A stretch of 64,000 bases of DNA from Dehalococcoidia bacterium (GTDB lineage Bacteria > Chloroflexota > Dehalococcoidia > UBA2979), in the NCBI GenBank assembly GCA_965262725.1, contig OZ253555.1:1826762-1890761 (forward strand). The letters run 5' to 3'. Made by a program: the position numbers and the translations under genes. Below are positions 25,094-53,161 of this stretch, piece after piece (the stretch's first letter is position 1; the number at the start of each line of letters is the position of its first letter). A model generated the notes under the pieces. That model searched no databases, was not told where the DNA came from, and was given only the letters and a program-made list of their open reading frames with translations.

Positions 25094-26535
25094 CGGCGCT
25101 GGTCCGCGAGCGGCGAGGGGGAGCGGCGTCAGGTCGGGAGCGGGAGCGCGCGCAGCCGTGCGAGGGCATCGGTGAAGTGACCGGCCCATGGCCAGCGCGC
25201 CGGCAGATGGAGCGTGAACCGACGAGCAGAGCGGGTCAGCCGCCCGACGAGAGCGAAGAGCCGCCGCCGGAGCGTCCGGGTGGTGACGATGCGCTCGCCG
25301 AGCCCGAGCCGCGCCGTCCAGCGAGCGAGATTGTGGGCGATCACCTGGACCGCGAGCCAGGCGCCGTTGGCGGCGAAGCGGCCGGACGGCAGGTGATTGA
25401 GCCCCACGCCGTACTTCAGGTCGCGGATCGCGTTCTCGACCTCGGCGTGGCGGCGATGGTCGGCCTCCAGTTCGAGCGTCTCCCCGTCGCGGTCGGTGAT
25501 GAAGGCGTGGTAGCTATACGTCGCGAAGAGAGCGAGCTGCGAACCAGGCGTCGGCCGCACGCGCCGGACGATGAGCCGCACCGGGACGGCGTCCGGCGCG
25601 TGTGCGAACGGCGTGTAGGTCGTCTCTGAGACATCGGCGCCGCCCTCCAGCCAGTACGGGATCGGCGTCCACTCCTGTTCGGGAATCGCCTCGGTCAGCT
25701 TCCGCAGCTTCGGATGCTGGCGGATCGTGACCGAGAAGCGGACATCCATCTCGCGGCAGGCAGCGACCACCGCGCGGGAGTAGAAGCCGCTGTCGGCGCG
25801 CACCGTGAGTTGCCCGTTCGCTCCGGCATCGCGGACTCGACCCACCGTCTCCTGTAGGAAGTGGGCGGCGCCCCGGCCGCTGTACGCACGACCCCCGCGC
25901 AGCCGGGCCATCAGCACGTCACCCGTCCCGGCCGCCACCGCGAGCAGCGGGTGATAGCCGCGCGCACCGGTGTAGCCGGGGCGCTGCGCCCCCTCCTTGG
26001 CGAAGCCGTAGGTCTCGCACACCGTCGAATCGAGGTCGATGGTGAATGGCGCCTCGCCGGGTCCGGCCCCGGCGGCCCAGGCGCGGGCAAGCAGCGCGCG
26101 ACTGACGCGGTCGAGCTGGCGGACGTGGCCCCAGCGGAAACTGCGTAGGAAGGTGCCGAGCGTGGATGGCGCCTTGACGGTGCATCCGAGAACGCGCTCT
26201 GTGCCGCCGGCGCGCAACGCATCGGCATCGTCGATGCAGTCGCCGCCCGCTAGCACGGAGGCGACGAGTGTCGCGACCTTGTCTCCCGCGTTCGCCCTGC
26301 CCGGTGCGTCGCCGAGGTCGAGGTGACGGTCGACCAGCTCCCGCAGGCCGAGACGTTCGGCGAGCGTGGCCGGCAGGAGCAGACCCGCGTGGGCCACCAG
26401 GCGGTCGTCGTCGAAGGCGATCGAGAGCCGGGCGGGGCTGCTCGGTGATAGCATCGAATGGGTGCTCCCTGTTTCCGGTGGATCGTTCGCTTCACGACCA
26501 TTCTCCCAGATTCAGAGGAGCACCCAATTCCCTCT
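25094..26535 (-). mobile_element. IS1380-family insertion sequence (copy A)
   Basis: Transposase 25129..26454. Both termini are homologous to the ends of IS copy B at 51733-53161. Confidence 0.7.
25129..26454 (-). CDS. IS1380-family DDE transposase
   Basis: 441 aa, about 85% identical to the 51819..53144 product. Typical IS1380 transposase layout. Confidence 0.8.
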   Translation of the reverse strand: MLSPSSPARLSIAFDDDRLVAHAGLLLPATLAERLGLRELVDRHLDLGDAPGRANAGDKVATLVASVLAGGDCIDDADALRAGGTERVLGCTVKAPSTLGTFLRSFRWGHVRQLDRVSRALLARAWAAGAGPGEAPFTIDLDSTVCETYGFAKEGAQRPGYTGARGYHPLLAVAAGTGDVLMARLRGGRAYSGRGAAHFLQETVGRVRDAGANGQLTVRADSGFYSRAVVAACREMDVRFSVTIRQHPKLRKLTEAIPEQEWTPIPYWLEGGADVSETTYTPFAHAPDAVPVRLIVRRVRPTPGSQLALFATYSYHAFITDRDGETLELEADHRRHAEVENAIRDLKYGVGLNHLPSGRFAANGAWLAVQVIAHNLARWTARLGLGERIVTTRTLRRRLFALVGRLTRSARRFTLHLPARWPWAGHFTDALARLRALPLPT

Positions 26536-35663: not shown

Positions 35664-36335
35664 ATGAACACGCCGCGGCTGGCCGTGAGAGCCGTCTTCT
35701 GGGACCTGGACGACACTGTCCTGGACACTCTGACGGGCCGGGTGGAGGCGCTTGCCGGGGCGTATGAGGACTGTCTCGGCAGCCGACCGGACGCACGTGC
35801 GCTGTGGCGGGGGCACGATGGCCGCACGCTTCACGAACTCGCGAAGGAGTTGATGGGCGATGACTGGCCGCGTTTCGTCGAGTGCTACCGGGAGCGGTAC
35901 TTTGCTCTCGACATCGCCTCCGAGCCGTTCCCCGGCGTTGTGGACACGCTCGATGCGCTCAGGTCGGACGGGTTTCAGCTGGCGATTGTCACCTCGAAGC
36001 TCGCGTGGCGGGCGACGGAAGAGCTCGCACGCGCGGGACTGTTTGGCCGCTTCGCGGCTGTGGTCGGTTGGGAGGACAGCGAGCGGCACAAACCGGAGCC
36101 GGATCCGCTGCGCGTTGCGATGGGGCGCCTCGGCGTCGGTGAATCGGGCTCCATCGCGTACGTCGGGGACACGCCAGCCGACGTGAGGGCTGCACGGGCG
36201 GCAGGGTGCCACGCGATCGGAGCGGCATGGGGGTCGCTTGACGCCGATCGGGTGCGAGAGGAAAACCCGGACGTGCTGGTGGAACATCCGGCCGACGTGC
36301 TTGCCTACGTGCGCCGCGTGGGGCCGGAGAGGTAA
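35664..36335 (+). CDS. HAD-family hydrolase (phosphoglycolate phosphatase-like)
   Basis: The DxD motif (VFWDLDDTVLDT) plus later HAD motifs (VTSK; GDTPADV). Confidence 0.7.
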   Translation: MNTPRLAVRAVFWDLDDTVLDTLTGRVEALAGAYEDCLGSRPDARALWRGHDGRTLHELAKELMGDDWPRFVECYRERYFALDIASEPFPGVVDTLDALRSDGFQLAIVTSKLAWRATEELARAGLFGRFAAVVGWEDSERHKPEPDPLRVAMGRLGVGESGSIAYVGDTPADVRAARAAGCHAIGAAWGSLDADRVREENPDVLVEHPADVLAYVRRVGPER

Positions 36336-36369
36336 GAGCCCCGCCGCCGAAGTGGTGAAACGCTGCCAC

Positions 36370-36915
36370 TCAGCGTTCCTGCAACCGCTCGCGCGCCTGC
36401 CACTCGGCGCCCAGCACCGCGTAGAGAACGCCGTCGGCGCGCTCACCTCGGACGGGACGATTCATGCGAACTACGCCCTCCCGCTGCATGCCGAGCTTCT
36501 CTATAACACGCCACGAGGCCGTGTTGCGGATGTCGGCGACGGCCTGGACGCGGGCGAGGCCGAGCTCTTCGAAACCGAATGCGATGACCGCCGCCGCTGC
36601 CTCCGTCGCCAGGCCCTGGCCCCAGAGCGGGCGCGCAATGTCGTAGCCGATCTCGGCCGAGTCGGCCCCGCCGATTCCCAGGTTGAGGCCGCCCGAAGCT
36701 CGGCCCTCGTGGGCGATCGCCCATTGGAACCTGGTCTCGTCGTCGGCACGGATGGCCTTCGCAACAAACTCCTCAGCACTACGTCGCGTGTACGGACGTG
36801 GCACGGGGAGATACCGGGCCCACTCGGGGTCCGTCGCGTAGCCGACGACGTCATCGACATCGTCGAGTCGGAAGGGGCGCAGGAGCAGGCGCTGCGTTCG
36901 GAGCGTGGGCGGCAT
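36370..36915 (-). CDS. GNAT-family N-acetyltransferase (RimJ/RimL-like)
   Basis: Starts at MPPTLRTQRLLLRPF. Acetyltransferase fold (GQGLATEAAAAVI). Confidence 0.7.
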   Translation of the reverse strand: MPPTLRTQRLLLRPFRLDDVDDVVGYATDPEWARYLPVPRPYTRRSAEEFVAKAIRADDETRFQWAIAHEGRASGGLNLGIGGADSAEIGYDIARPLWGQGLATEAAAAVIAFGFEELGLARVQAVADIRNTASWRVIEKLGMQREGVVRMNRPVRGERADGVLYAVLGAEWQARERLQER

Positions 36916-37060
36916 GATCGGCCGAGTATCACACGGCGCGGCGCCGACGCCTCCCACGCATCGAAGTCGCAGGGGTCGTCGCAGACCTCCTGGCGCATGA
37001 GTCCGCCGGGGGCGAGCCCGGGCTCAGCCTCGGGAGCGAGCGCCGGAGCGTCGAGTGACT

Positions 37061-40000
37061 CTACTCCGGCTCCTCGAGGAACCCTGCGTCGGCAGGCTCG
37101 AGCAGCCCTCCGGCGTCCACGCGCCTGCGCGCTTCGGCGAGCGCCGCCTCGACCTCGGTGTGCCCGGGCCACGCCAGTTCGCCGCTGCGCAGGAAGAGCA
37201 GGCCCGCGTTCGCCGGAGCCCCGACGGCGGCCTCGATGGCGCGCTGGTAGAGCCCGATCTGCACGGCGTAGTGGCGTGCCGCCTCCTTAGCCGAGGTCCC
37301 GTCCAGCCGATCGCTCTTGAAGTCGATCACGTGCCAACCGCTCGCGTCGTGGTAGACGAGGTCGATGCTGCCGTGGACCGGCACGCCGTCCCAGTCCCAG
37401 GCGAACGGCAACTCGAACCAGCGCTCGACATCCGGCGCGGCCAGCGCGGCGGCGACCGGCGACCGCGTGAAGCGGTCGAGCATCTCCCGGGCCTCGCCGG
37501 CCAACGCCCGCGCCGTCGCGTCGTCGAGGGCGCGCTCGCTCTGCTCCCGGGCGAGATCGGCCAGCGCATCGTCGTCGAGGGAGCCGGGTGCGCCCCCGGA
37601 GACCTCGAAGGCGCGGTGCACGAGCAGGCCACGCAGCGCCGCCAGGCCGTCACCGTGCTCGTGCTGCCGCGGGGCGGTCTCCGGAGGGCGGAGCGCCGTG
37701 ACGGGCGTGCTCGCGCGCAGCGGGATCGCGGGCGGCCGCGCGAGCAGCGGCGAGATGTAGTCCTCCTCCTCGGATGTGTCGGGGCGCTCCAGGGCGGAGG
37801 GCGCCCGCCGCCTGGCGATCGCCTCGAGGTCGGGTGGGACCGGCTCGCGCAGCTGGATCTCGCGCAGGGCGCCACTGGCGTGCGCGTCGCGCACCGAGTG
37901 CAGCCAGCCCCCGCCTCCCGTCTCGTCGCCCGAGATATGGAGGTAGTCCCCGGCACGCGTCGCCGCGACATAGAAGAGACGCCGCTGCTCCTCCGCATCC
38001 TCCAGTTGGTCCTGTTGCTGCAGGTGCGCGTAGAAGCCGGGCCGCGGCCGCTTGTCGTCGTCCTCGTCGCGCTCCAGCATGACGGAGACGCCGTCCTCGC
38101 GAGACCAGCGGACCGCGTCCCAGGTCGACCAGGATGAGAGGTGCGCCTCCGGCACGAAGACGATCGGGAACTCGAGGCCCTTCGCGCCGTGCACCGTCAT
38201 CAGCTGCACCGCATCGGGGCGGTCGAGCGTGGCCGGCCCCTCGCGCGGGTCGAGGTCGTCGCGACGCTGCTCGAGGTAGGAGACCACCTCGGAGAGCGGG
38301 TGCCCGGCCAGCGTGCGCACGATGCGCAGCAGCTTGCGGATGTTCGCGCGGGCTTGCTCGCCGCCCGCGAGCGGCGCCCATGACGCCTCGACGGCGGTGC
38401 GGTCGAGAGCCAGCTCGAGCAGCGCGTCGGCCGGCAGGGAGGCAGCGGCCCGTCGCAGTGCGGCGAGCGTCTCCCGGGCATGCGCGCAGCGTGCGCGCTC
38501 CTCGCCGGCGATCTCGTCGGGCGGATCGGCCAGCGCCGCCACCGGCCTGCCCCGCTCGCGCAGCGCCAGCAGCGTGTCGTCCCCGAGGGCAAAGAAGGGC
38601 GATCGCAGCACGCCGCTGAGCGCGAGATCGTCCTGCGGCTCCGCCAGCCAGCGCAGCAGGTTGATGCAGTCGAACACCTCCTGCCGCGTGAAGAAACCCG
38701 TGCCGCTCGGTGTCGCGGCCGTGATGCCATGCGTGTCGAGGGCTTGCTGGAAGACATGGACGTGCCTGAAGCGCCTCAGCAGGATCGCGATGTCGCCGCG
38801 CTGCGCGGGGCGCATCACACGCTCGTCCCGGTCCCAGACCAGCCGCCCGCCGGCGAGCAGCCTCTCGATCTCCTCCGCGACCACGTCCGCCTCGACCCGT
38901 CGCCGCTCGGGCTCGCGCGGCCGCCCGCCGTCCGGCGCCCTGCTCCCGATCTGTGTCAGCGTGAGGTAGGTGCCGTCGTCCGGCGCCTCGCCGGGGCGGC
39001 CCGTCATCGGTGGTAGCGCCGCGAGGGACGGCGCCGTACCGGCGAAGACCTCGCCGAAGAGCTCGTTGATGCGCGCCACCAGTGCGTCGTGGCTGCGGAA
39101 CGAGCGGCTGAGCGGCAGCAGCGGCCCGCCCCGGCGGGCGACGAGGCCCTGCAACGCGGTGAAGCGGTGCACGTCCGCCCCGCGGAAGCGGTAGATCGAT
39201 TGCCGCGCGTCGCCGACGAGGAAGAGCGCGGGTCGCGGCCCGTCGCCGTCGCCGCCGGCAATCAGCTCGATCAGCTCCGCCTGCACGGGGTTGATGTCCT
39301 GTGACTCGTCGACCATCAGGTGGCGGAAGCGCTCGCGCACGGCGGCGGCCACGGCCGGGTGATCGCGGAGCAGGCCGACGGCGCCCAGCTCGAGATCGAG
39401 GTAGTCGAGCGCGCCCTGCGCCTCCTTCGCCGCCGTGTAGCGCCGCACCGCGTTCTCGAAGAGCGCGCGCAGCCCGGCGAGCGCTTCGAGAGCCGGCTCG
39501 TCGTGCTCGTTCCAGGCGGGCAGCCTCCCGGCCTCGCCGGCAAGCTCGCGCAGCTCGCGCAGCGCGTCCTTGACGTCGGAGTCGGGCGGACTCCTGCGCC
39601 CCACGTTGAGTCTGATGCGCGCCGCCGCGTCGCCGAGGAGGGCGGCGAAGTCTTGCCAGGAGTCCGCCTCGCAGGCCTCGGTGAGCGGCGCCAGGACGTC
39701 GCGCACGACCTCGGCAAGCCTGTCGCTCACGGCGTCGGCGTCGCGCCTGATCCGCGCGGCGATCGTCGGCGTCTGCTCCTGGATCGATCTCTGTCGGGGC
39801 CCGTAGCGCCCGTCGAGGGTGGCGCGGACGCGGCCGGGCCAGCCGGCGCTGTCCGCGCCCATCGCCGCGAAGGCGGACTCGACGGCGTCCCGCTCGGCGA
39901 CCATCCGCGGGAGCCGGACACCGGCGTGGTAGACGCCGATCCCGCGCAGCGCGGTGGTGCGCTCGTCGTCGGCCTCCGCGGCAGCATCGATCGCCTCGAT

Positions 40001-40381
40001 GCAGGCCGTGCGCCGCAGCAGTTCCGCCTCGTCGTCGGCGAGCACGGCAGCCGAGGGGTCGAGTACCGCCTCGACGGGGTGCTCGCGCAGCAGGCGCAGG
40101 CCCAGCGAGTGCACCGTCCCGATCGCCGCCTCGTCGAGCAAGGCGCGATGCTGCTCCAGCGCGGGGTCCAACATCACCGCGCTGCGCACCCGCTCGCGCA
40201 TCTCGGCGGCGGCCGCCTCGGTGAAGGTGATCGCCGCGATCTCCGGGATCGAGCAGTCGCGCAGCAGCCGCAGGTAGCGCTCGACCAGCACGCGGGTCTT
40301 GCCGCTGCCCGCGCCGGCCGCGACCGTGAGGTCCGAGGCGTCCGCCTCGATGATCGTTCGTTGCTCGCCGGTCAGGTCCAC
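37061..40381 (-). CDS. UvrD/PcrA-type helicase fused to a C-terminal PD-(D/E)XK nuclease (AddA/AdnB-like recombination helicase-nuclease subunit)
   Basis: 1106 aa. GTG start; Walker A (AGAGSGKT); SF1 helicase motifs; C-terminal RecB-type nuclease (IDLVYHD...IDFKSD). Confidence 0.8.
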   Translation of the reverse strand: MDLTGEQRTIIEADASDLTVAAGAGSGKTRVLVERYLRLLRDCSIPEIAAITFTEAAAAEMRERVRSAVMLDPALEQHRALLDEAAIGTVHSLGLRLLREHPVEAVLDPSAAVLADDEAELLRRTACIEAIDAAAEADDERTTALRGIGVYHAGVRLPRMVAERDAVESAFAAMGADSAGWPGRVRATLDGRYGPRQRSIQEQTPTIAARIRRDADAVSDRLAEVVRDVLAPLTEACEADSWQDFAALLGDAAARIRLNVGRRSPPDSDVKDALRELRELAGEAGRLPAWNEHDEPALEALAGLRALFENAVRRYTAAKEAQGALDYLDLELGAVGLLRDHPAVAAAVRERFRHLMVDESQDINPVQAELIELIAGGDGDGPRPALFLVGDARQSIYRFRGADVHRFTALQGLVARRGGPLLPLSRSFRSHDALVARINELFGEVFAGTAPSLAALPPMTGRPGEAPDDGTYLTLTQIGSRAPDGGRPREPERRRVEADVVAEEIERLLAGGRLVWDRDERVMRPAQRGDIAILLRRFRHVHVFQQALDTHGITAATPSGTGFFTRQEVFDCINLLRWLAEPQDDLALSGVLRSPFFALGDDTLLALRERGRPVAALADPPDEIAGEERARCAHARETLAALRRAAASLPADALLELALDRTAVEASWAPLAGGEQARANIRKLLRIVRTLAGHPLSEVVSYLEQRRDDLDPREGPATLDRPDAVQLMTVHGAKGLEFPIVFVPEAHLSSWSTWDAVRWSREDGVSVMLERDEDDDKRPRPGFYAHLQQQDQLEDAEEQRRLFYVAATRAGDYLHISGDETGGGGWLHSVRDAHASGALREIQLREPVPPDLEAIARRRAPSALERPDTSEEEDYISPLLARPPAIPLRASTPVTALRPPETAPRQHEHGDGLAALRGLLVHRAFEVSGGAPGSLDDDALADLAREQSERALDDATARALAGEAREMLDRFTRSPVAAALAAPDVERWFELPFAWDWDGVPVHGSIDLVYHDASGWHVIDFKSDRLDGTSAKEAARHYAVQIGLYQRAIEAAVGAPANAGLLFLRSGELAWPGHTEVEAALAEARRRVDAGGLLEPADAGFLEEPE

Positions 40382-40666
40382 TGCTTACGCCTCGTGAACT
40401 GGTTGACGCGACAGATATGGCGGAAGGCGCAGTAGCTGGGGCAGGTCGGCACCTGCGGGTCCACCCGGAAGTCACCTTCGGCCACCGAGGTACGCACCCC
40501 CTCCGCGTGTTGCGCCGCCTCCTCGATCAGCGCAGCATCGTCCGGGTTCGAGATCGAGCCCCGAATGTGGCAGGGCCCGATCGTCGCCTGCCTGGGGCGC
40601 TCAGCGCTCGGCTGGGATGGTCTGCACGCCGTAGCGGGAAATGATGCTGTCGGAGGTCACGATGGT
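40376..40666 (-). pseudogene. 3' remnant of the partner nuclease gene (AddB/AdnA-like) with an Fe-S Cys motif
   Basis: About 97-codon open frame with no start codon, ending in ...CPSYCAFRHICRVNQFTRRKQWT*. Its stop overlaps the helicase start (GTGGACCTGA). The upstream part is replaced by vapBC. Confidence 0.45.
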
Positions 40667-40990
40667 CAGTCCCTCGACCTGAGCCTGAGCGACGAGCAGC
40701 CGATCGAACGGATCGCGGTGGATGGGTGTGAGTCCTCCCGCATGCTCCGCGTGGAAGAGGGTGATGGGCAGACCCTTGAAGCCATCCTGCTCAATCCGCC
40801 CGGCGAGATCGGGAGGAGCCCGCAGTTTTCCCAGGGCCTGCTTGATGGCGATCTCCCAGACCGAGGCGGCGCTCGCGTACGCGTCGTTGTCGGGGTCGGT
40901 GATGGCGTCACGGGCGCTCGGTCCAAGCCTCGGATGATTCCCGAGCGCCCACACCAGGGCCTGGGTGTCGAGGAGCAGGCGGAGCATCAC
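40601..40990 (-). CDS. vapC: VapC PIN-domain toxin
   Basis: 129 aa PIN domain (LLLDTQALVW...D...). Overlaps vapB by 4 nt. Confidence 0.8.
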   Translation of the reverse strand: MMLRLLLDTQALVWALGNHPRLGPSARDAITDPDNDAYASAASVWEIAIKQALGKLRAPPDLAGRIEQDGFKGLPITLFHAEHAGGLTPIHRDPFDRLLVAQAQVEGLTIVTSDSIISRYGVQTIPAER

Positions 40991-41229
40991 GCAACGTCAC
41001 CACTGGCGCCCTCGAATGCCTCGATTACCTCCAACGGGGTGTCGTCGAAATCCTCGGCGATCCAGATCTGACCCTCAAGCGATCCAAGCTCGCGCCGGCG
41101 TCGCTCCCGGTAGGGTTGGAGCAGCAGGTACGGCTTGCCGGCCTTGGCGATCACGATCTCCTCTCCGCTCCACGCCAGCTCGCCGAGACGGGAGAGTTGC
41201 GACTTCGCCTCGTGCATGTTGACCTGCAT
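40987..41229 (-). CDS. vapB: VapB/Phd-type antitoxin
   Basis: 80 aa (MHEAKSQLSRLGELAWSGEEIVIAKAGKPYLLLQP). Located upstream of vapC. Confidence 0.7.
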   Translation of the reverse strand: MQVNMHEAKSQLSRLGELAWSGEEIVIAKAGKPYLLLQPYRERRRRELGSLEGQIWIAEDFDDTPLEVIEAFEGASGDVA

Positions 41230-41444
41230 CGGGGGCTCCTTAGCTAAGCTGGGCTTAGTCGATTATTGGGGCAACGCGCCCCATCCGCAACGCGGCGGCG
41301 AAGGTGCGGGTGCCTGTCGGGCTCGTTACAAGCGGAGCTCCCGATACTCAGCGTGAGAATCCGGGGCTCACGGCCCTGCGTGGTCGCGCGCGCCGAGGCA
41401 CTAGAATCCAGCTGGAGGCATCATTCGTAGCCGGGGGGGTCGCG

Positions 41445-42545
41445 ATGGAGATCAAGGCGGCAGTGCTCTACGAGGCGAACACCCCGCTGGTCGTCGAGCC
41501 CGTGCAGCTCGACGCCCCGAAGCATGGCGAGGTTCTCGTGCGCATCGCCGCGGCGGGCGTGTGTCACTCCGACTACCACGTGATGAAGGGCGAGTGGACA
41601 CTGCCGCTGCCGATGGTGCTCGGCCACGAGGCCGCCGGCACCGTCGAGAAGGTGGGCCCGGGAGTCGAGCGCGTGCGGCCGGGCGACCACGTGATCCTGA
41701 ACTTCCGCCCGAACTGTGGCTGGTGCGACCACTGCAGCCGGGGCGAGCCCGTGCTCTGCAACGGAGCGGACAGCGAGCGCTGGCTGCTGTTCGACGGCAC
41801 CACGCGCCTGCACACCGGCGGCGGGCGGGACCTCAATCACTTCGCACGAGTCGCCTCGTTCGCGGAGTATGCGGTCGTCCCCGAGTCGGGCGCGGTGCCC
41901 GTCCGCAACGACGTGCCTCTCGACAAGGCGGCGCTGATCGGATGCTCGGTGATGACCGGGGTCGGAGCGGTCATCAACACCGCGCGGGTCGAGGTCGGCA
42001 GCTCGGTGCTGGTGATCGGCTGCGGCGGGGTCGGCCTGAACTGCATCCAGGGCGCCGTGCTTGCGGGGGCGGAGCGGATCATCGCCGTCGACGTGAGGGC
42101 CAACAAGCTCACGTACGCAAAGCAGTTCGGCGCGACCGACGTCCTCGACGCGAGCGAGGGCGACACCGCAGCCCGGGTTATCGAGCTGACGGGTGGGGGC
42201 GTGGACTACGCGTTCGAGGCGATCGGCTTCTCGAAGACGATCGTCGACTGCTACGAGTCGACGCGGCTCGGCGGCACGACGGTCGTCGTGGGTATGACGC
42301 CCGAGGACGACATGATGACCATCCCCGCGCTCTCGCTTCCGCGCACGGAGAAGGTGCTGCGCGGCTCGTGGTATGGCTCCGCCCGGCCCTGGATCGACCT
42401 CCCGAAGATGGTCGACCTCTACATGGGCGGCCGCCTGCAGGTCGATCCGCTCGTCAGCCGCACCTACCCGCTCGAGGAGATCAACGAGGCGTACGCGGCC
42501 CTCGATCGCGGCGAGGTCGCACGTAGCGTGCTGCTGATGGACTGA
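41445..42545 (+). CDS. zinc-dependent alcohol dehydrogenase (class III / formaldehyde-dehydrogenase-like)
   Basis: Zn-ADH motifs (GVCHSDYH, GHEAAGTVEKVG, GCGGVGL). Confidence 0.8.
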   Translation: MEIKAAVLYEANTPLVVEPVQLDAPKHGEVLVRIAAAGVCHSDYHVMKGEWTLPLPMVLGHEAAGTVEKVGPGVERVRPGDHVILNFRPNCGWCDHCSRGEPVLCNGADSERWLLFDGTTRLHTGGGRDLNHFARVASFAEYAVVPESGAVPVRNDVPLDKAALIGCSVMTGVGAVINTARVEVGSSVLVIGCGGVGLNCIQGAVLAGAERIIAVDVRANKLTYAKQFGATDVLDASEGDTAARVIELTGGGVDYAFEAIGFSKTIVDCYESTRLGGTTVVVGMTPEDDMMTIPALSLPRTEKVLRGSWYGSARPWIDLPKMVDLYMGGRLQVDPLVSRTYPLEEINEAYAALDRGEVARSVLLMD

Positions 42546-42559
42546 GCCGCTCACCAGCC

Positions 42560-42760
42560 GATTCGTTCGTTCGGGATGGTCTGCACGCCGTAGCGGGAAA
42601 TGATGCCGCCGGACGTCACGATGGTCAGTGGAGTCGGCTAGACGACGCGCAGACGGTCATGAGGCTCGGGCGGCAACCCGACCAAGATCCGGTCGCCAGG
42701 CTGCACTCCGCCGGTATGCGAACCCGCGACCCCCAGTTGGCGAAACTGGCGCTCAGGCGC
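42560..42760 (-). pseudogene. degraded vapC paralog (C-terminal remnant)
   Basis: Minus-strand frame ...LPPEPHDRLRVV*PTPLTIVTSGGIISRYGVQTIPNERIGW, cf. VapC ...FDRLLVAQAQVEGLTIVTSDSIISRYGVQTIPAER. About 60 nt is near-identical to 40605-40665. Confidence 0.5.
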
Positions 42761-42800
42761 GCTCGCACCAGGTACCACGAGCCGGATGACGATCAGTCGA

Positions 42801-43124
42801 TCACCAAGGCGTCGATAGTCGTGCTGAAGGTCCCGGCCGAGTCAATGCTGCGATCGAGCCTGGCTTGCGACCACGCTCGATCTCGGAGAGATAGCTGAGG
42901 GCCACACCCGAGCGCTCCGACAACTCGCGCAAGGTGAGCCTGTGCTGGTCGCGGAATGCACGGACGGGGCTGGCACCTTCCATGATGGCGAGCGCCACCT
43001 CGTGCGGAAGCCTTGCATCGCCCTCCGCCTCGGCGGCGGCCAGACGGTCCTCAAGCACGGCGGTCCGCTCGACAAGCGCGTCGTACTGCTCGCGTGTCAG
43101 CGTGACGATCTCATCGGCGCTCAT
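42801..43124 (-). CDS. HigA-like HTH (XRE) antitoxin
   Basis: 107 aa with a C-terminal XRE HTH (LTLRELSERSGVALSYLSEIERG). Downstream of and overlapping the RelE-type toxin gene. Confidence 0.6.
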   Translation of the reverse strand: MSADEIVTLTREQYDALVERTAVLEDRLAAAEAEGDARLPHEVALAIMEGASPVRAFRDQHRLTLRELSERSGVALSYLSEIERGRKPGSIAALTRPGPSARLSTPW

Positions 43125-43311
43125 ACGCCTCCCTCCTGTGCCGGACTCTCAGCACGACCATGACAGGCGGATCGCGGTGCTCGACGGCGAAGATCACCCT
43201 GTAGCTCCCGACCCTCAGACGGTGGTACCTGCTCCCGGTCAACGGCGTCACCTGCCTGGCAAGCGTTTCCGGGTCCTGAGCGTACTGTTGGCGCGCGTGG
43301 CTCATCCACAA
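43111..43311 (-). CDS. RelE/ParE-superfamily toxin (HigB-like, toxin-first arrangement)
   Basis: RYHRLRVGSYRVIFAVEHRDPPVMVVLRVRHRREAY. Short at 66 aa and non-ATG start, so it may be N-terminally truncated. Confidence 0.55.
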   Translation of the reverse strand: MWMSHARQQYAQDPETLARQVTPLTGSRYHRLRVGSYRVIFAVEHRDPPVMVVLRVRHRREAYERR

Positions 43312-43936: not shown

Positions 43937-45154
43937 CTAGCCAGCTGTGAACTTTGCCGCTTCCCCCGAACCGCCTGTAGCATCCCCTTCGCTGTATGAG
44001 TGGGCTCCTGTTCCAGCAAGGGCGCCTCCCTGGACAATCAGGTACTCCTCCCTAATCGGCCGTCCATCCAACCAGCATTCCAGAATCTCACGGACTCCCG
44101 CTGAGTAGCGGGCTTGGGCTGAAAGCGAAGTGCCCGAGGTGTGGGGAGTCATGGCGTGGTTGGGCATGGACCTCCAGGGGTGATCATTGGGAGCCGGCTG
44201 AGGGAACCAAACGTCGCCCGCATACCCTGCCAGTTGACCGCTTTCGAGAGCTCTGACGATGGCGTCCCGGTCACAGATTTTGCCGCGGGCCGTGTTGACG
44301 ATATAGGAGCCGCGCTTCATCTTGCTAATCAGAGCATCGTTGAACATATTCTCAGTCTCGGGATGGAGAGGACAATGGATGCTGACCACATCACACACAC
44401 TGACGAGCGACTCAACGGTTTCGTGGAACGTCAGGCCAAGCTCTTGCTCGACATCAGTGGCAAGCCGATGTCTGTCGGTATAGTGGAGAGTGACGTCGAA
44501 AGGCTTCATTCGTCTCAGGACCGCTAAGCCAATTCTGCCGGCCGCCACTACACCCACGTCCATTCCCTCAATGTCGTAGGACCTGGAAACGGCGTCCGCA
44601 ATGTTCCATCCGCCCCTGACCACCCAATCGTGCTGGGGGATGTAGTCCCTGACCAGCGCCAACATCTGCATGACCGCATGCTCCGCGACGCTTATGCTGT
44701 TGCACCAGGTCACTTCACAGACAGTGATGTTCCTGCCGATGGCCGCCTGAAGGTCGACATGGTCCGACCCAATGCCAGCGGTTATGGCTAACTTGAGGTT
44801 CGGAGCCTTTTCAATGCGCTCGGCGGTGAGGTACGCGGGCCAGAAGGGTTGGGAGATGACTATATCGGCATCAGCCAGTTCTCTTTCGAAAACGGAATCG
44901 GGTCCATCCTTGTCCGCCGTTACGACGAACCTGTGTCCCCGTTCAGCCAAGAACCTCTCCAGCCCAAGTCCGCCCGAAACAGATCCCAGAAGGTGGCCAG
45001 GGATGAAGTCTATGGCGGCCGGTGAGGGTAAGGTCTGGCCGTCCGGATACTGGGTGAGGTTGGGTATTCTTTCGCGGGCATAGTCCGGAGGAAATCCTGC
45101 CACTGGATCGGAATAGAGAACACAAAGCACTTTCTGAGCGGAAGAGGAACTCAT
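43937..45154 (-). CDS. fdh: NAD-dependent formate dehydrogenase
   Basis: 405 aa, classical FDH (ISQPFWPAYLTAERI, GIGSDHVDLQAA, NSISVAEH, GRIG Rossmann). RBS AGGAGA. Lower GC than the backbone. Confidence 0.85.
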   Translation of the reverse strand: MSSSSAQKVLCVLYSDPVAGFPPDYARERIPNLTQYPDGQTLPSPAAIDFIPGHLLGSVSGGLGLERFLAERGHRFVVTADKDGPDSVFERELADADIVISQPFWPAYLTAERIEKAPNLKLAITAGIGSDHVDLQAAIGRNITVCEVTWCNSISVAEHAVMQMLALVRDYIPQHDWVVRGGWNIADAVSRSYDIEGMDVGVVAAGRIGLAVLRRMKPFDVTLHYTDRHRLATDVEQELGLTFHETVESLVSVCDVVSIHCPLHPETENMFNDALISKMKRGSYIVNTARGKICDRDAIVRALESGQLAGYAGDVWFPQPAPNDHPWRSMPNHAMTPHTSGTSLSAQARYSAGVREILECWLDGRPIREEYLIVQGGALAGTGAHSYSEGDATGGSGEAAKFTAG

Positions 45155-46012: not shown

Positions 46013-47166
<1,154 letters not shown>

Positions 47167-48120: not shown

Positions 48121-49355
48121 GTGCGCCTTGAAGTTGAAGGACGGTGCAGGATGACCTGACCAGTCTGGAGACGTGCTCGTTGTCGCCAACCGGTGCAAGT
48201 CCGGTCCGGGTAACTATCAGGAGGCTCGGTAGCAGGTCGGCGGCTTGGTCTGGAAACGGACCGGGTCGGAGCCCGACGTCGAAAGCCCTTTCAGGGGAAG
48301 CAAACACACGGTCCGCAGCATAAAGCGAAGCCTGCCGCGTCGTAAGAGTCCCCGCCATTGGCGGGAAAGAGGAAGAGCCGAGCCCCGACCCTCAGGGCGA
48401 AGGCCATGGAAGAGATGAAGACCTGGAATCGCAATCTCGAAGAACTTCCCGGCGTAAGCCCTGATCCAGAGCGCCAGGCTAACTGGCGAGTAGGCAGGAG
48501 GTGGAAGTCCTCTATGGCAAAGAGCTAGCCACTCATGTCATTCCGCGAGCCGTGCGCGGGTCGTCGCGAGGCGGCTTGTGAAGCGTCGGCAGCGGGGTGT
48601 GCGGGCGGGGCTAATGAGCATCGAAAGGGCCATTTGGGGTGCCGAGGCTCTTGGATTGGTCGAAGGCAATACCGGCGACGGCGCTACTGGCGAGTCGTGG
48701 TCGGGCCCCACGGTGTCGAAGACCCCATGCACGCACACACGTCTATCGCCGGGACTTGGGAGAGCTGCGCGTTGTCCCGACGAGTCGTACGCCGGGACCG
48801 CGTCGGGAAGGGACGTAAACCGTAGCCGATGATGAACGATGCGCAGCAGTCTGATGGGGCCGTACGAGCGATGAAGGCGGCGAACAAGGGGGCGCGAGCC
48901 CCGGCGGAGTCGCTGGAGCAAAGGGCCCCAACCGAGAGGAATCCTCAAAGCACCGGCACGGTCCGGACGCAGAGTCGGGGTGCGGTGTCACCCGGAGCGG
49001 AGAGGATACGGCAGTTCGTGGAACGGAAGCCGGGAGAGAAACTCACCGCGCTCTTGCACCACATCACGCCGGAGGCGCTGCGGGAGGCGTATCTCGCGTT
49101 GAAGCGGGATGCGGCTCCGGGCGTGGACGGGGTGAGGTGGCGAGAATACGGGGACGGGCTGGACGAGCGATTGCTCGACCTGCATGGCCGCGTACACCGT
49201 GGAGCGTACCGGGCGAAGCCCGTCAGGCGGGTAGAGATACCCAAGCCGGACGGGGGAATACGGCCGCTCGGTATCGTCTCGCTGGAGGACAAGATCGTTC
49301 AGCGGGCGGTGGTGGACAATCTTTTGAACCCGATTTACGAGTCGGGCTACTACGG

Positions 49356-50681
49356 GGCACCTCGAAGAACTCGCGATTGTTGATGAAGGTATCGGTGAGG
49401 GCACGAGGGGGCAGAGGGCGTAGCTGAGGAGACCCCAGGGGGTGTGGGTGAGTCCGCGAGAGCATAGGTGAAGCGGGATAATTGACAGTTAAACGGGACT
49501 GTCAAAGCACCGAACTAGAGGCTGGTGTGAGGTCTGTGGACGGGTGGCGGCAAGCTAGGCCGCGGCAGCCGTACGGCGGTGTTCGAGGTGCGCCAGACGG
49601 CGAATATTGTACGCCAGGTTCTTGAAGCCGATCTGCGTCACTGCCCGCCGCACGCCGATCGTACGGATGTGCGTGCCGCCCATCTCGTTCGTCTGCGAGC
49701 CGAAGATGTGCTCAACCCGGGCCCGTACTTGCGACCATCCCCGGTTGACCGCCTCCTCAGCCGCCGTCAACGGCCGGTTGGCAGCGGCCTTCCGATGGAT
49801 GCGGCTCGTCAGACCTTTCTCCGTGAGCATTGCCTCAATCGCCCGCGACCGATAGGCACGGTCTGCCCACACATCGGGTGACGTGTTCGGAGAGTCGAGC
49901 AGCTGGTCGATCACCTGGCTGTCATGGACCGCGGCATCGGTGACGGCGTAGGAACGCACCAGCTTGTGGCGCCGATCGATGGTGATGTGGTTCTTGTAGC
50001 CGTAGTGACTCTTCCCGTGCTTCTTCGTCCAGCGGGCGTCGAGGTCTTTCTGGGCCAGCTTCGCCGGATTGAAGACCCACTCCGAGGGAATGAGGTCCTG
50101 CTTGAGCGACTCGTTCTCCCGGCGGCTGTTGCGCTGGATCGGCACCGAGACGATCGAGGCGTCGACGATCTGTCCGCCACTGGCGCGGTAGCCCTGGCTG
50201 GCGAGATAGTGGTCGAAGGCCTGGAACAACTCGGCGATGGCGCCCGCCCTGGTCAACTGCTCGCGGTAGAGCCAGAAGGTGGTGGCGTCGGGCACCCGGC
50301 CTTCGATGCCTGTGCCGCAGAAGCGGGAGAAGGAGAGACGGTCGCGGATCTGATACTCAATCTGTTCATCGGAGAGGTTGTAGAGTACGCCGAGTATCAA
50401 TCCCTTGAAGATGACGATTGCGTCCCATGGCTTGCGTCCGGCCGGTGATTTACGCTCTTCTTCGGGCGTGGCCCAGACGGCTTCTAACTGAGGTCTGAAC
50501 TGCTCCCACGGGATGATTTGGTCGAGCTTGGCGAGTGGGTCGCCCTTGGCGTCGAGAGCGTCGTAGCGGTCGTCCACATTGAAGAACCCAAGTTGGCCCA
50601 TATCATCCCCCGTAACCATGACCCTAATGGCTACAGTATATCATTCACCATGCCGACGATATAGTCATTCTTCGAAGTGCC
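49356..50681 (-). mobile_element. IS5-family insertion sequence nested in the intron RT ORF
   Basis: Imperfect terminal inverted repeats GGCACCTCGAAGAA / GGCACTTCGAAGAA. Flanking direct repeat about CTACGG. Transposase at 49555..50619. Confidence 0.7.
49555..50619 (-). CDS. IS5/IS4-superfamily DDE transposase
   Basis: 354 aa DDE_Tnp_1-like protein (...DASIVSVP...WTKKHGKSHYGYKNHIT...DRAYRS...). Confidence 0.75.
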   Translation of the reverse strand: MVTGDDMGQLGFFNVDDRYDALDAKGDPLAKLDQIIPWEQFRPQLEAVWATPEEERKSPAGRKPWDAIVIFKGLILGVLYNLSDEQIEYQIRDRLSFSRFCGTGIEGRVPDATTFWLYREQLTRAGAIAELFQAFDHYLASQGYRASGGQIVDASIVSVPIQRNSRRENESLKQDLIPSEWVFNPAKLAQKDLDARWTKKHGKSHYGYKNHITIDRRHKLVRSYAVTDAAVHDSQVIDQLLDSPNTSPDVWADRAYRSRAIEAMLTEKGLTSRIHRKAAANRPLTAAEEAVNRGWSQVRARVEHIFGSQTNEMGGTHIRTIGVRRAVTQIGFKNLAYNIRRLAHLEHRRTAAAA

Positions 50682-51732
50682 CTACGGCTTCTCGCATGGC
50701 TTCAGGCCGGGGCGTTCGGCGCATGACGCGCTGGACGCACTGGCCTACGCGGTCGAACGGCGCAAGGTCAGCTGGATTGTCGAGGTGGACATCCGGGAGT
50801 TCTTCGGCAGCATCGACCGGGGGCGGCTGATGTCGTTTCTGGAGATGCGCATCGGGGACCAGCGGGTGTTGCGCCTGATACGAAAGTGGCTGAGCGTCGG
50901 CGTCATGGACGCGGAGCCGGAAGTCGATTTCGTGCGGGGGATGCCGCAGGGGGCGCCGATATCGCCGCTGCTTGCGAACGTGTACCTGCACAACGTGCTC
51001 GACGACTGGTTTGCGCGCGAGTGGCGACCGCGGGAGGTCCGGGGCGAGGCGTACATCGTGCGGTATGCCGATGACTTCGTCCTGGGGTTCCAGCACCGCA
51101 GCGATGCGGTGCGGTTCATGGAGGCACTCCGGGAGCGGTTCGCGGCCTACGGGCTGGAGCTGCACCCGGAGAAGACCCGTCTACTTGAGTTCGGCAGGTT
51201 CGCGCTGGCGAACAGGCGGAAGCGCGGGGAGGGCCGACCGGAGACGTTCGACTTTCTCGGCATGACGCACTACTGCCGGACCCGACGCGACGGGAGATTC
51301 GGGCTGGGGCGCAAGCCCGTTGCGAAGCGGATGCGCCGGACGCTGAAGGCCATCAAGGCCGAGTTGTGGCGGCGCATGCACGACAACCCCGTGACGACGG
51401 GGCAGTGGCTGGGGCGGGTACTGCGTGGGTGGCTTGGCTACTACGCGGTGCCGACCAGCTCGCCGGCGCTCACGCGGTTTGTTCGTTTCGTGAAGCGGCT
51501 CTGGCTGCGCGTTCTCCGACGGCGGTCGCAGCGCGACCGTTTCACGTGGGAGCGCATCCTTGCCCTGTGCCAGAAACACTGGCCCCGAATCTCCATCCTT
51601 CACCCGTGGCCTGCGGAGCGATTTGCCGTCACGCACTTGAGGTAGGAGCCGGATGCCCGAGAGGGCACGTCCGGATCTGTGCGGGGGGTGCCGGGCAACC
51701 GGCATCCCTACCGCGAACCGAAGAAGAGTGCG

Positions 51733-53161
51733 CGAGCGGCTGGGGTTGGGTGCTCCGCTGTAGCTGGGACAATGGTTTTTGACCGAATCACGTCACAGCC
51801 ACAGGGAGCACCCATTCGATGTTAGCAACGAGCAGCCCCGACCGGATACACATCGCCTTCGACGACGACCGCCTCGTGGACCACGCGGGCCTGCTGCTCC
51901 CGGCCACGCTCGCTGGCCGGCTCGGCCTCCGTGAACTGGCAGACGCCCAGCTCGACCTCGGTGACGCAGCGGGGCGGGCGAACGTCGGCGACAAGCTGAT
52001 GACTCTCATCGCCTCGGCGCTCGCGGGCGGCGACTGCATCGATGACGCCGATGCCATGCGCTCAGGCGGCGCCGGGCGCGTGCTCGGCTGCACCGTGAAG
52101 GCGCCGTCCACCCTCGGGACCTTCCTGCGCAGCTTCCGGTGGGGCCACGTCCGCCAGCTCGACCGCGTCAGCCGCGAGTTGCTGGCCCGCAGCTGGGCGG
52201 CCGGGGCGGGACCCGGCGCGGCGCCGTTCACGATCGACCTCGACTCGACGCTCTGCGAGACCTACGGCCTCGCCAAGGAGGGCGCCCGGCACCACGGCTA
52301 CACGGGCGTGCGCGGCTATCACCCGCTGCTCGCGGTGGCGGCCGGGACGGGTGAGGTGCTGATGGCGCGGCTGCGCGGGGGCCGTGCCAACACCGCTCGG
52401 GGGGCCGCACACTTCCTGCGTGAGACGGTGGCGCGGGTGCGCGACGCCGGGGCCTCGGGGCAGCTCACGCTGCGCGCCGACAGCGGCTTCTACAGCCACG
52501 CTGTCGTCGCCGCCTGCCGCAAGCAGGATGTCCGCTTCTCCATCACCATTCGCCAGCAGCCGAACGTACGCCGGCTGATCGAGGCGATACCGGAAGAGGA
52601 CTGGACGCCGATCCCGTACTGGCTGCCGGGCGGCGCCGCTGTCGCCGAGACGACCTACACGCCGTTCCAGCACACGGGGGACGCCACCGCGGTGCGGCTC
52701 ATCGTGCGGCGCGTCACGCCGACGCCCGGCTCACAGCTCGCGCTCTTCGTGGACTACAGTTACCACGCCTTCATCACCAACCGCGCGGGGGAGATGATGG
52801 AGCTGGAGGCCGACCATCGCCGTCACGCCGAGATCGAGAACGCGATCCGCGACCTCAAGTACGGCGTCGGGTTGAACCATCTCCCATCGGGCCGCTTCGC
52901 CGCGAACGCGGCGTGGCTCGCGGTGCAGGTGATCGCGCACAACCTCGCCCGCTGGACGGCGCGCCTCGGGCTCGGCGAGGGAATCATGACGACCAGGACG
53001 CTCAGGCGGCGCTACTTCTCTCTCGCCGGACGGCTCACCCGCTCTGCCCGGCGGTGGACTCTGCACCTCCCGAAGCGCTGGCCCTGGGCAGAGCAGCTGG
53101 CAGCCGCGCTCGCGCGACTACGGGCGATACCGCTCCCGGCCTGACGCTCGCTCACAGCGCC
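51733..53161 (+). mobile_element. IS1380-family insertion sequence (copy B)
   Basis: Starts about 14 nt after the intron copy-2 3' end. Transposase at 51819..53144. Ends homologous to copy A. Confidence 0.7.
51819..53144 (+). CDS. IS1380-family DDE transposase
   Basis: 441 aa paralog of 25129..26454. Confidence 0.8.
   Translation: MLATSSPDRIHIAFDDDRLVDHAGLLLPATLAGRLGLRELADAQLDLGDAAGRANVGDKLMTLIASALAGGDCIDDADAMRSGGAGRVLGCTVKAPSTLGTFLRSFRWGHVRQLDRVSRELLARSWAAGAGPGAAPFTIDLDSTLCETYGLAKEGARHHGYTGVRGYHPLLAVAAGTGEVLMARLRGGRANTARGAAHFLRETVARVRDAGASGQLTLRADSGFYSHAVVAACRKQDVRFSITIRQQPNVRRLIEAIPEEDWTPIPYWLPGGAAVAETTYTPFQHTGDATAVRLIVRRVTPTPGSQLALFVDYSYHAFITNRAGEMMELEADHRRHAEIENAIRDLKYGVGLNHLPSGRFAANAAWLAVQVIAHNLARWTARLGLGEGIMTTRTLRRRYFSLAGRLTRSARRWTLHLPKRWPWAEQLAAALARLRAIPLPA

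Follow-up and report, generated by a model that had tools for sequence, protein, structure and literature searches.

AddAB enzymes work as heterodimers, in which AddB provides DNA-end binding, the 5′-strand nuclease and Chi recognition. In AdnAB enzymes each of the two subunits has its own complete UvrD-like motor and RecB nuclease. AddAB is active as the heterodimer, and isolated AddA unwinds short substrates only and loses its DNA-end specificity (PMC3064778). The Fe-S cluster of AddB needs four cysteines, and this cluster is required for DNA binding (PMC3321194). Here we analysed a 64-kb stretch of DNA (the window) that encodes an AddA-like protein next to a remnant of its partner gene. Comparison with closely related loci makes it very probable that addB was lost through a recent 4.6-kb deletion, which removed 94% of the gene in one strain lineage of Chloroflexota (Dehalococcoidia-like). 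The coordinates of the features are collected in Table 1.

Table 1. Features around the addB remnant in the window.
Feature	Position	Strand	Description
addA	37061..40381	-	intact, 1106 aa, AddA-like SF1 helicase with C-terminal PD-(D/E)XK nuclease domain
addB remnant	40372..40549	-	last 58 codons (40549-40375) and stop; Fe-S Cys 2-4 present
deletion junction	40549..40551	.	window 40550 (C, minus strand) is a 1-nt microhomology common to both flanks
retained vapC 3′ flank	40551..40600	-	50 nt (51 with the shared C 40550); 100% identical to L079 5388-5438
vapC	40601..40987	-	PIN-domain toxin, 128 aa; Pfam PIN, E 3e-14
repeat copy 1	40614..40670	-	3′ end of intact vapC
vapB-like antitoxin	40987..41229	-	80 aa; stop overlaps vapC start by 1 nt
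zinc-type alcohol dehydrogenase (ADH)	41445..42545	+	366 aa; Pfam ADH_N, ADH_zinc_N
repeat copy 2	42573..42629	-	3′ end of older vapC convergent with ADH; 94.7% identical to copy 1 and to L077 vapC
decayed vapC′ body	42630..42724	-	about 60% nt identity, in-register DRL motif, internal stop; tblastn and alignment

The earlier note on this DNA had described a 1106-aa helicase frame whose start overlaps the stop of an upstream frame, and this arrangement is confirmed. The GTG start of addA lies at 40381, and the TGA of the upstream frame (40374-40372) falls within the first 10 nt of addA (GTGGACCTGA). As in B. subtilis AddAB (PDB 3U44/3U4Q), the encoded protein has an SF1A UvrD-like motor (Pfam UvrD-helicase, 191 bits; UvrD_C, 99 bits) followed by a C-terminal RecB-family PD-(D/E)XK nuclease (PDDEXK_1, 50 bits, residues 914-1066). 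Its top PDB match is B. subtilis AddA (3u44_A, E 3e-55), and it departs from the consensus at only 5 otherwise invariant columns, which is within the range of its relatives. In related loci, the gene directly upstream of the helicase is AddB-like. It encodes ADDB_N and PDDEXK_1 domains, a Walker A motif (GPAGSGKT) and a PD-(D/E)XK nuclease, and its sole solved relative is B. subtilis AddB (3u44_B). Its four conserved cysteines are spaced like C801/C1121/C1124/C1130 of B. subtilis AddB (PMC3321194), and here too addB precedes addA, the stop of the one overlapping the start of the other. The sequences are, however, divergent: addA stays below the NCBIfam equivalog level (TIGR02785, 301 bits against a cut-off of 708; TIGR02784, 300 against 861), as does AddB (64 bits against 904). 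Since these proteins belong to a divergent Chloroflexota clade, ‘AddA-like’ is the safe label. No match to AddA was found in an exact-protein look-up, and the best match in a scan of JGI metagenomes with AddA as the query was no closer than 78%.

Mycobacterial AdnAB (PDB 6PPJ) resembles the operon in having two large UvrD/RecB-nuclease subunits in tandem and in coming from a high-GC organism. However, AdnB matches the window protein at residues 4-122 only (E about 1e-29), far behind AddA, and the matches of the partner in relatives are to AddB and ADDB_N and not to a full second motor, apart from a faint one to AAA_19. Judged by the top PDB matches, the AddAB label appears to fit better than AdnAB. 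In the initial description as an ‘AddA/AdnB-like’ helicase with an AddB/AdnA partner, the AddAB half is the one that these matches favor.

The frame upstream of addA ends with the sequence ...CPSYCAFRHICRVNQFTRRKQWT before its stop codon. It had been given as open for about 97 codons without a start. We count 94 codons (40656-40375), and it is indeed a short stub with internal GTGs only, in which only the final 58 codons (40549-40375) come from addB. In tblastn searches, 41 related loci gave alignments between the frame and the C-terminal end of the gene that immediately precedes the helicase (at most 80% amino acid identity, E values down to 4e-28), which bears out its assignment as the C-terminus of an AddB-type nuclease. 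The stub matches only positions 207-247 of the PDDEXK_1 profile, with 20 bits against a cut-off of 22. The invariant cysteines of AddB are residues 710, 953, 957 and 963 in the L079 protein, and the remnant begins at residue 918. It therefore retains only C953, C957 and C963, whereas C710, the D...DYK nuclease motif and the entire N-terminal domain lie in the deleted DNA. What remains of addB is 58 non-translatable codons, fused 51 nt behind vapC, and the heterodimer, the defining feature of AddAB, cannot form from this locus. The partner gene is intact in L030, L075, L076, L079 and L080, whereas no partner for the helicase-nuclease was found in the 64-kb window. The claims that the partner gene was destroyed at this locus and that the helicase-nuclease is orphaned within the window accordingly hold.

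Upstream of the stub, nucleotide homology to all relatives ends at window 40550; AddB of L030, for example, matches the window at 40551-40375 only. The GC content falls from 74% to 66% at the stub boundary. The earlier note explained the truncation by a mobile or recombining vapBC-ADH segment that was inserted into addB, with the duplicated 3′ end of vapC marking the insertion boundaries. The change in GC content and a 57-66-nt direct repeat, which brackets vapC (5′ part), vapB and ADH, speak in favor of such an insertion. The syntenic comparison points to a deletion instead. Relative to L079, exactly 4,605 bp are missing (L079 5439-10043; blastn and exact-match walk). Window 42763-40550 corresponds to L079 3224-5438 at 98.4% identity and window 40550-40207 to L079 10044-10387 at 99.1%, and the two matches overlap at window base 40550 only. 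The deletion extends from 51 nt past the vapC stop to addB codon 917, and the gap contains the L079 genes for a CYTH protein (175 aa), a 96-aa ORF, a 185-aa ORF and addB (975 aa, with full PDDEXK_1 and ADDB_N domains). At the nucleotide level nothing in the window matches the deleted segment. A second intact allele is represented by L078/L080, which lie on one contig. On the left it follows the window as far as 40550, its addB is intact (1000 aa), and on the right it runs collinear with window 40550-32219 (98% identity), covering the addA, HAD, ABC and Band_7 genes.

In both intact alleles (98-99% nucleotide identity), the vapC′ remnant with repeat copy 2, ADH, vapB and vapC stand upstream of full-length addB-addA. 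Because the block and the repeat are already present in relatives with intact addB, both are older than the truncation and have no connection with it. In addition, the 5′ part of addB is absent beyond the block and throughout the window, and the breakpoint lies 51 nt outside vapC and not at a repeat copy. Destruction of addB by insertion of the vapBC-ADH segment is hence extremely unlikely. An inversion that brought vapBC beside the stub was also considered, prompted by a divergent PIN/antitoxin pair upstream of addB in L074-L076 (87-89% AddA relatives); it was ruled out, as these PIN/antitoxin proteins are unrelated to the VapBC proteins of the window.

The junction between stub and vapC was recovered in 10 contigs from 10 ENA assemblies (L049-L058), which are 98-100% identical to the window and came from an exact-protein look-up of VapC starting at ATG. 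The same look-ups with ADH and with VapC from its GTG gave no match. A chimeric assembly or a collapsed repeat might be suspected in a region so rich in IS elements and repeats. However, the junction is unique sequence and not a repeat, it is identical in the 8 deletion-allele contigs compared across stub and spacer, and the 10 assemblies differ in assembler and read type and include contigs of 1.5-7 Mb. The chance that it is an artefact is practically negligible, and its recurrence in all 10 indicates that the deletion is real and arose once. The remnant is identical to intact AddB of L079 and L080 in 58/58 amino acids, with 2-3 synonymous differences, which shows that the deletion is recent.

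The neighboring toxin-antitoxin module is of the VapBC type II kind, with a PIN toxin directly following a small, overlapping antitoxin gene. Matches of the antitoxin are weak and below cut-off (PhdYeFM, 19 bits; NCBIfam TA_VapB, 25 bits against a 60-bit cut-off), while homologues of VapC number in the thousands. Nothing in this module is unusual for so widespread a family, and it is the neighbor of the deletion, not its cause. As previously claimed, the 3′ end of vapC is repeated beyond ADH, where it had been placed at 42575-42636; the 57-nt core lies at 42573-42629, within an overall repeat of 40605-40670 and 42564-42629 (89% identity). This is far above chance for a 5-kb region. The decayed vapC paralogue proposed beside the second copy is also present, as a vapC-like remnant of overall extent ~42563-42724 with a stop codon and indels. 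In L077, vapC and ADH are contiguous and convergent, and the junction at copy 2 resembles that of L077 minus about 59 nt, so that copy 2 is explained as an old vapC/ADH junction. The window ADH gene shares 91-93% nucleotide identity with those of L023 and L077. The repeat may have originated in a tandem duplication, in Campbell-type recombination or through gene conversion involving a diverged paralogue. As to age, the alignments show it to be older than the deletion.

Taken together, the locus is very likely a deletion allele of an addB-addA operon for AddAB-type double-strand-break resection, produced by the loss of 4,605 bp. In the direction of addA, the ancestral order would have been the vapC′ remnant, ADH (opposite strand), vapB, vapC, CYTH and the 96-aa ORF (both opposite strand), the 185-aa ORF, addB, addA, and the GNAT, HAD and ABC transporter genes. 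This arrangement survives in co-occurring strains with 98-99% identity to the window. One illegitimate recombination event at a 1-nt microhomology would then have taken out CYTH, the two small ORFs, what was likely the promoter region of addBA, and most of addB, with the left breakpoint at the foot of a hairpin just past vapC. Neither the vapBC-ADH block nor the duplication of the vapC 3′ end, both in place by then, would have had a part in the event. Since AddAB is a heterodimer and the functions of AddB are missing, its end-resection activity has very probably been lost from this locus in the lineage.

The vapC 3′ flank can form a GC-rich hairpin of 12-15 bp, whose 3′ foot abuts the junction. 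Its predicted fold is modest (-29 kcal/mol, z -1.7, no U tract), and the whole spacer between vapC and addA showed no significant overall structure (z -0.4). No consensus promoter or terminator was found between vapC and addA, nor in L079; the consensus sequences used in these scans were of the E. coli type and may not suit Chloroflexota. The addA gene follows vapC on the same strand after 220 nt and has its own GAGG ribosome-binding site. From this arrangement, transcription of addA, if any, would probably start at the vapBC promoter and read through vapC; the hairpin behind vapC, as a terminator without a U tract, could stop it there. It is very unlikely that addA has been retained as a new downstream gene of the vapBC operon, as a stand-alone 3′-5′ helicase-nuclease tied to the toxin-antitoxin promoter. 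If this were true, the vapBC-linked addA would form a novel nuclease module that responds to stress or phage and not a decaying orphan.

The addA gene is still intact in most deletion strains, with a nonsense codon in one. It is of full length with conserved motifs in the window, L049, L051 and L052, and L050 carries Q567*. This intactness would follow from the recent date of the deletion. Alternatively, addA could still work, either together with an AddB-like protein encoded at another place in the genome or alone as a helicase-nuclease, and be kept by selection. Isolated B. subtilis AddA has 3′-5′ helicase activity (PMC3064778), and two related MAGs carry two addAB-like loci each (L001 and L007; L009 and L014). 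Moreover, synonymous and non-synonymous changes in the deletion clade are about 20/20, compared with a neutral expectation from site counts of about 11/29. Much of the divergence, however, consists of tracts imported from other alleles (38279-39200, L054, L055), so that substitution ratios mirror selection in the donor lineages. For this reason a dN/dS of 0.17 between the window and L054/L055 was rejected as a sign of selection after the deletion: 52/55 differences fall in the single recombination tract 38279-39200. Fixed changes in addA number 7 synonymous and 9 non-synonymous in the deletion clade, and the intact-allele branch L080 has the same kind of ratio (7/13). Branch-polarised counts revealed no excess of damaging addA changes in the deletion clade, deletion and intact lineages being alike. 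This pattern is also compatible with a still-useful addA, and such counts are unable to separate selection from drift. With the stub still at 58/58 amino acids, too little time has passed since the deletion for decay to be expected. In addition to the nonsense codon in L050, the 96%-identical relative L039 keeps only addA codons 821-1106. A functional addA maintained by selection therefore seems unlikely, and we favor a recent deletion that has left addA without its partner.

The event is an ordinary strain-level gene loss of a kind already known, set in a region rich in IS elements and toxin-antitoxin genes. With one junction, 1 nt of microhomology and several genes lost, it is like other strain-level deletion polymorphisms that arise by microhomology-mediated illegitimate recombination. 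Like known strain-level deletions and pseudogenes, it is polymorphic among co-occurring strains in a variable region, and no notable difference from these was seen. Among 47 loci of GTDB representatives, the window flanks had no match except for L039 and the ADH gene of L023; these flanks are also weakly conserved among the representatives themselves, which makes flank synteny uninformative. The case also holds a warning for method. A direct repeat around accessory genes beside a truncated gene mimicked an insertion scar, and comparison with close relatives revealed that the repeat is older than the truncation and unrelated to it. Beyond this organism the finding is of little importance. Within it, the locus represents an addB knockout of natural origin, widespread within one population of uncultured Chloroflexota (Dehalococcoidia/Tepidiformaceae-like), where strains with the intact operon coexist. 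This lineage may be able to do without AddAB-type end resection or have a backup for it, or the variable IS- and TA-rich region beside the operon may make the operon prone to loss.

The product of the helicase gene (table) has B. subtilis AddA as its best solved relative (3u44_A, E 3e-55), with weaker matches to the AdnB and RecB structures, and scores far under the NCBIfam equivalog cut-offs, so it is best described as divergent AddA-like. It departs from the consensus at 5 otherwise invariant columns (relatives, 0-15). A genome scan with the helicase gave 48 loci, nearly all in Dehalococcoidia/Tepidiformaceae MAGs, and two related MAGs each carry two addAB-like loci. In related loci, a gene of ~1000 aa with ADDB_N and PDDEXK_1 domains, whose sole solved relative is AddB (3u44_B), lies directly upstream of the helicase with the same 10-nt overlap as the stub has in the window. 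There, the addA GTG start lies within GTGGACCTGA, which ends in the TGA of the upstream frame. This frame stays open over 94 codons, with internal GTGs only, and its product has the C-terminus ...CPSYCAFRHICRVNQFTRRKQWT*. The stub aligns to the last 59 residues of the partner gene in 41 loci at up to 80% identity, which bears out the earlier note's view of it as an AddB C-terminal remnant. A search of the window with a full-length partner from a related locus (L030) found no match outside the stub, and nucleotide homology to every relative ends at 40550. Four Cys are invariant in AddB of this clade (residues 710, 953, 957 and 963 in L079, an intact allele), corresponding to the 4Fe-4S ligands C801, C1121, C1124 and C1130 of B. 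subtilis AddB (PMC3321194). As the stub starts at residue 918, three of these are kept, and the first Cys, the nuclease motif and the entire N-terminal domain are gone; the partner has indeed been lost at this locus.

Features of the addA locus and its surroundings (window coordinates)
Feature	Position	Strand	Remarks
DDE_Tnp_1_4 (IS1380-like) transposase gene	25129-26454	minus	
addA ORF, 1106 aa	37061-40381	minus	UvrD-helicase, UvrD_C, C-terminal PDDEXK_1 domains
addB stub	40549-40375	minus	last 58 codons
Hairpin	40553-40586		12-15 bp, GC-rich, immediately after vapC
vapC	40601-40987	minus	PIN domain; upstream of addA, same strand
vapB-like gene	40987-41229	minus	upstream of addA, same strand
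Zinc alcohol dehydrogenase (ADH) gene	41445-42545	plus	opposite strand to vapBC
Copy of vapC 3' end	42564-42629		89% over 66 nt; core 57 nt, 94.7%
HTH_3 antitoxin-like gene and overlapping 62-aa ORF	42801-43309		HTH_3 gene 107 aa, matching only first 36 of 55 HTH profile positions
NAD-dependent formate/2-hydroxyacid dehydrogenase gene	43937-45154		GC ~58%
katG-like (catalase-peroxidase) N-terminal fragment	46163-46909		248 aa
Group II intron reverse-transcriptase (RT) gene, two pieces	48829-49383, 50677-51645		
Transposase, IS5-family element	49555-50619		splits RT gene
Intact RT copy of same kind	23380-24864		
DDE_Tnp_1_4 transposase gene, second copy	51819-53144	plus	
IS256-type transposase	60974-62197		

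The loss had been ascribed to insertion or recombination of a TA-bearing vapBC-ADH segment. Intact alleles reached via VapC homologues at 98% identity (L078 and L079) show that this mechanism is wrong. In L079, vapB and vapC follow an ADH gene that is on the opposite strand; next come a CYTH-domain gene and a 96-aa ORF, these too on the opposite strand, and then a 185-aa ORF, addB at full length (975 aa) and addA. Window 42763-40550 matches L079 3224-5438 (98.4%) and window 40550-40207 matches L079 10044-10387 (99.1%), base 40550 alone being common to both alignments. The window is thus L079 minus 4,605 bp (L079 5439-10043), joined across a 1-nt microhomology. On the left, the break falls 51 nt past the stop codon of vapC, where the hairpin has its 3' foot; this hairpin could act as a terminator without a U tract or be prone to slippage. 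On the right, the break is within addB codon 917. No nucleotide match to the deleted DNA was found in the rest of the window. In the contig holding L078 and L080, the left flank is as in the window up to 40550, followed by CYTH and other genes, three IS elements and intact addB (1000 aa) and addA; its downstream HAD, ABC transporter and Band_7 genes are collinear with window 40550-32219 (98%). This second contig confirms the deletion.

The vapC 3' repeat had been read as marking the boundaries of the insertion. However, the second copy and the vapC' remnant (decayed vapC-like sequence next to that copy, containing a stop codon) are also present in L078 and L079, yet addB is intact there, which refutes destruction of addB by a vapBC-ADH insertion. 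In a further relative (L077), the same ADH gene directly adjoins, in convergent orientation, a vapC of 92% identity, and the window's second copy plus ADH 3' flank align as this junction minus ~59 nt. Upstream of the second copy, similarity to vapC falls to ~60%. The repeat is therefore the scar of an earlier rearrangement in a plastic region rich in TA genes, and is unrelated to the addB truncation; it may have arisen either by duplication or by recombination with a diverged paralogue. L078 and L079 cease to match the window at almost one position, no more than 5 nt apart (window 42763-42768; L078:3219, L079:3224). Just past it lie different transposase genes, DDE_Tnp_1_4 in L078 and rve/Mu-type in L079, which makes it a possible hot spot for insertion or rearrangement.

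An exact look-up of the VapC protein returned 10 contigs from 10 ENA assemblies (L049-L058), 98-100% identical to the window and all with the vapC-stub junction. Stub and spacer are identical across the 8 contigs compared, one SNP excepted. The arrangement is real and fixed in a lineage. The deletion is recent, since the stub is identical to intact alleles at 58/58 aa, with 2-3 synonymous differences. addA is full length in the window, L049, L051 and L052. In L050, a nonsense substitution, Q567* (L050:12305-12310, ~window 38681-38683), cuts it into 566-aa and 538-aa ORFs, possibly the onset of addA decay following addB loss. Pairwise addA dN/dS against L054 and L055 is 0.17, a value we rejected as misleading because 52 of 55 differences fall in an imported recombination tract (38279-39200). 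Such clusters, with ~5-10% divergence between strains that are nearly identical elsewhere, also occur at 37609-38135 against L053 and look like homologous-recombination tracts from other addA alleles. Polarised fixed changes in addA (synonymous:non-synonymous) are 7:9 in the deletion clade and 7:13 on the intact L080 branch, with no detectable difference between these counts. Another genome, a GTDB representative (L039, OZ252250.1; L039:9562-13498), has a 2-kb fragment, 96% identical to window 35890-37930, in which GNAT, a portion of HAD and, of addA, only codons 821-1106 survive. With a tRNA-Ala(GGC) gene on one side of this fragment and an IS5-family transposase on the other, pieces of the locus seem to move or decay independently.

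GC falls from ~74% in addA to ~66% at the stub and 55-62% in a region that holds the formate-dehydrogenase-like gene, the katG fragment, the group II intron pieces and several IS elements. The first two, conserved in L049-L052, resemble cargo that was acquired or has decayed. The DDE_Tnp_1_4 copies are inverted, ~25 kb apart with addA between them, and are a potential substrate for inversion. Together, the HTH_3 gene and the 62-aa ORF that overlaps its start may form another toxin-antitoxin pair, truncated in part. In three other loci (L074-L076:4101-4726), an unrelated divergent PIN/antitoxin pair lies upstream of addB, so TA modules recur next to the operon. The addB of L074 is split between two predicted ORFs of 691 and 278 aa (L074:5063-8010), which reflects either a further damaged allele or an error in sequencing.

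The loss of addB is a recent deletion polymorphism between strains, of an ordinary kind, in a region rich in IS and TA elements, and offers little that is new. The deletion also took the region upstream of addB, the expected site of the operon promoter. In the window, vapC precedes addA by 220 nt on one strand, GAGG lies 8 nt before the addA GTG, and a consensus terminator scan found none between the two genes; any addA expression would thus most likely stem from transcription that reads through from the vapBC promoter. AddAB acts as a heterodimer, isolated AddA unwinding short substrates and losing DNA-end specificity (PMC3064778), and DNA binding needs the AddB Fe-S nuclease domain (PMC3321194). 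Given these requirements, strains with the deletion allele should lack AddAB end resection from this locus.
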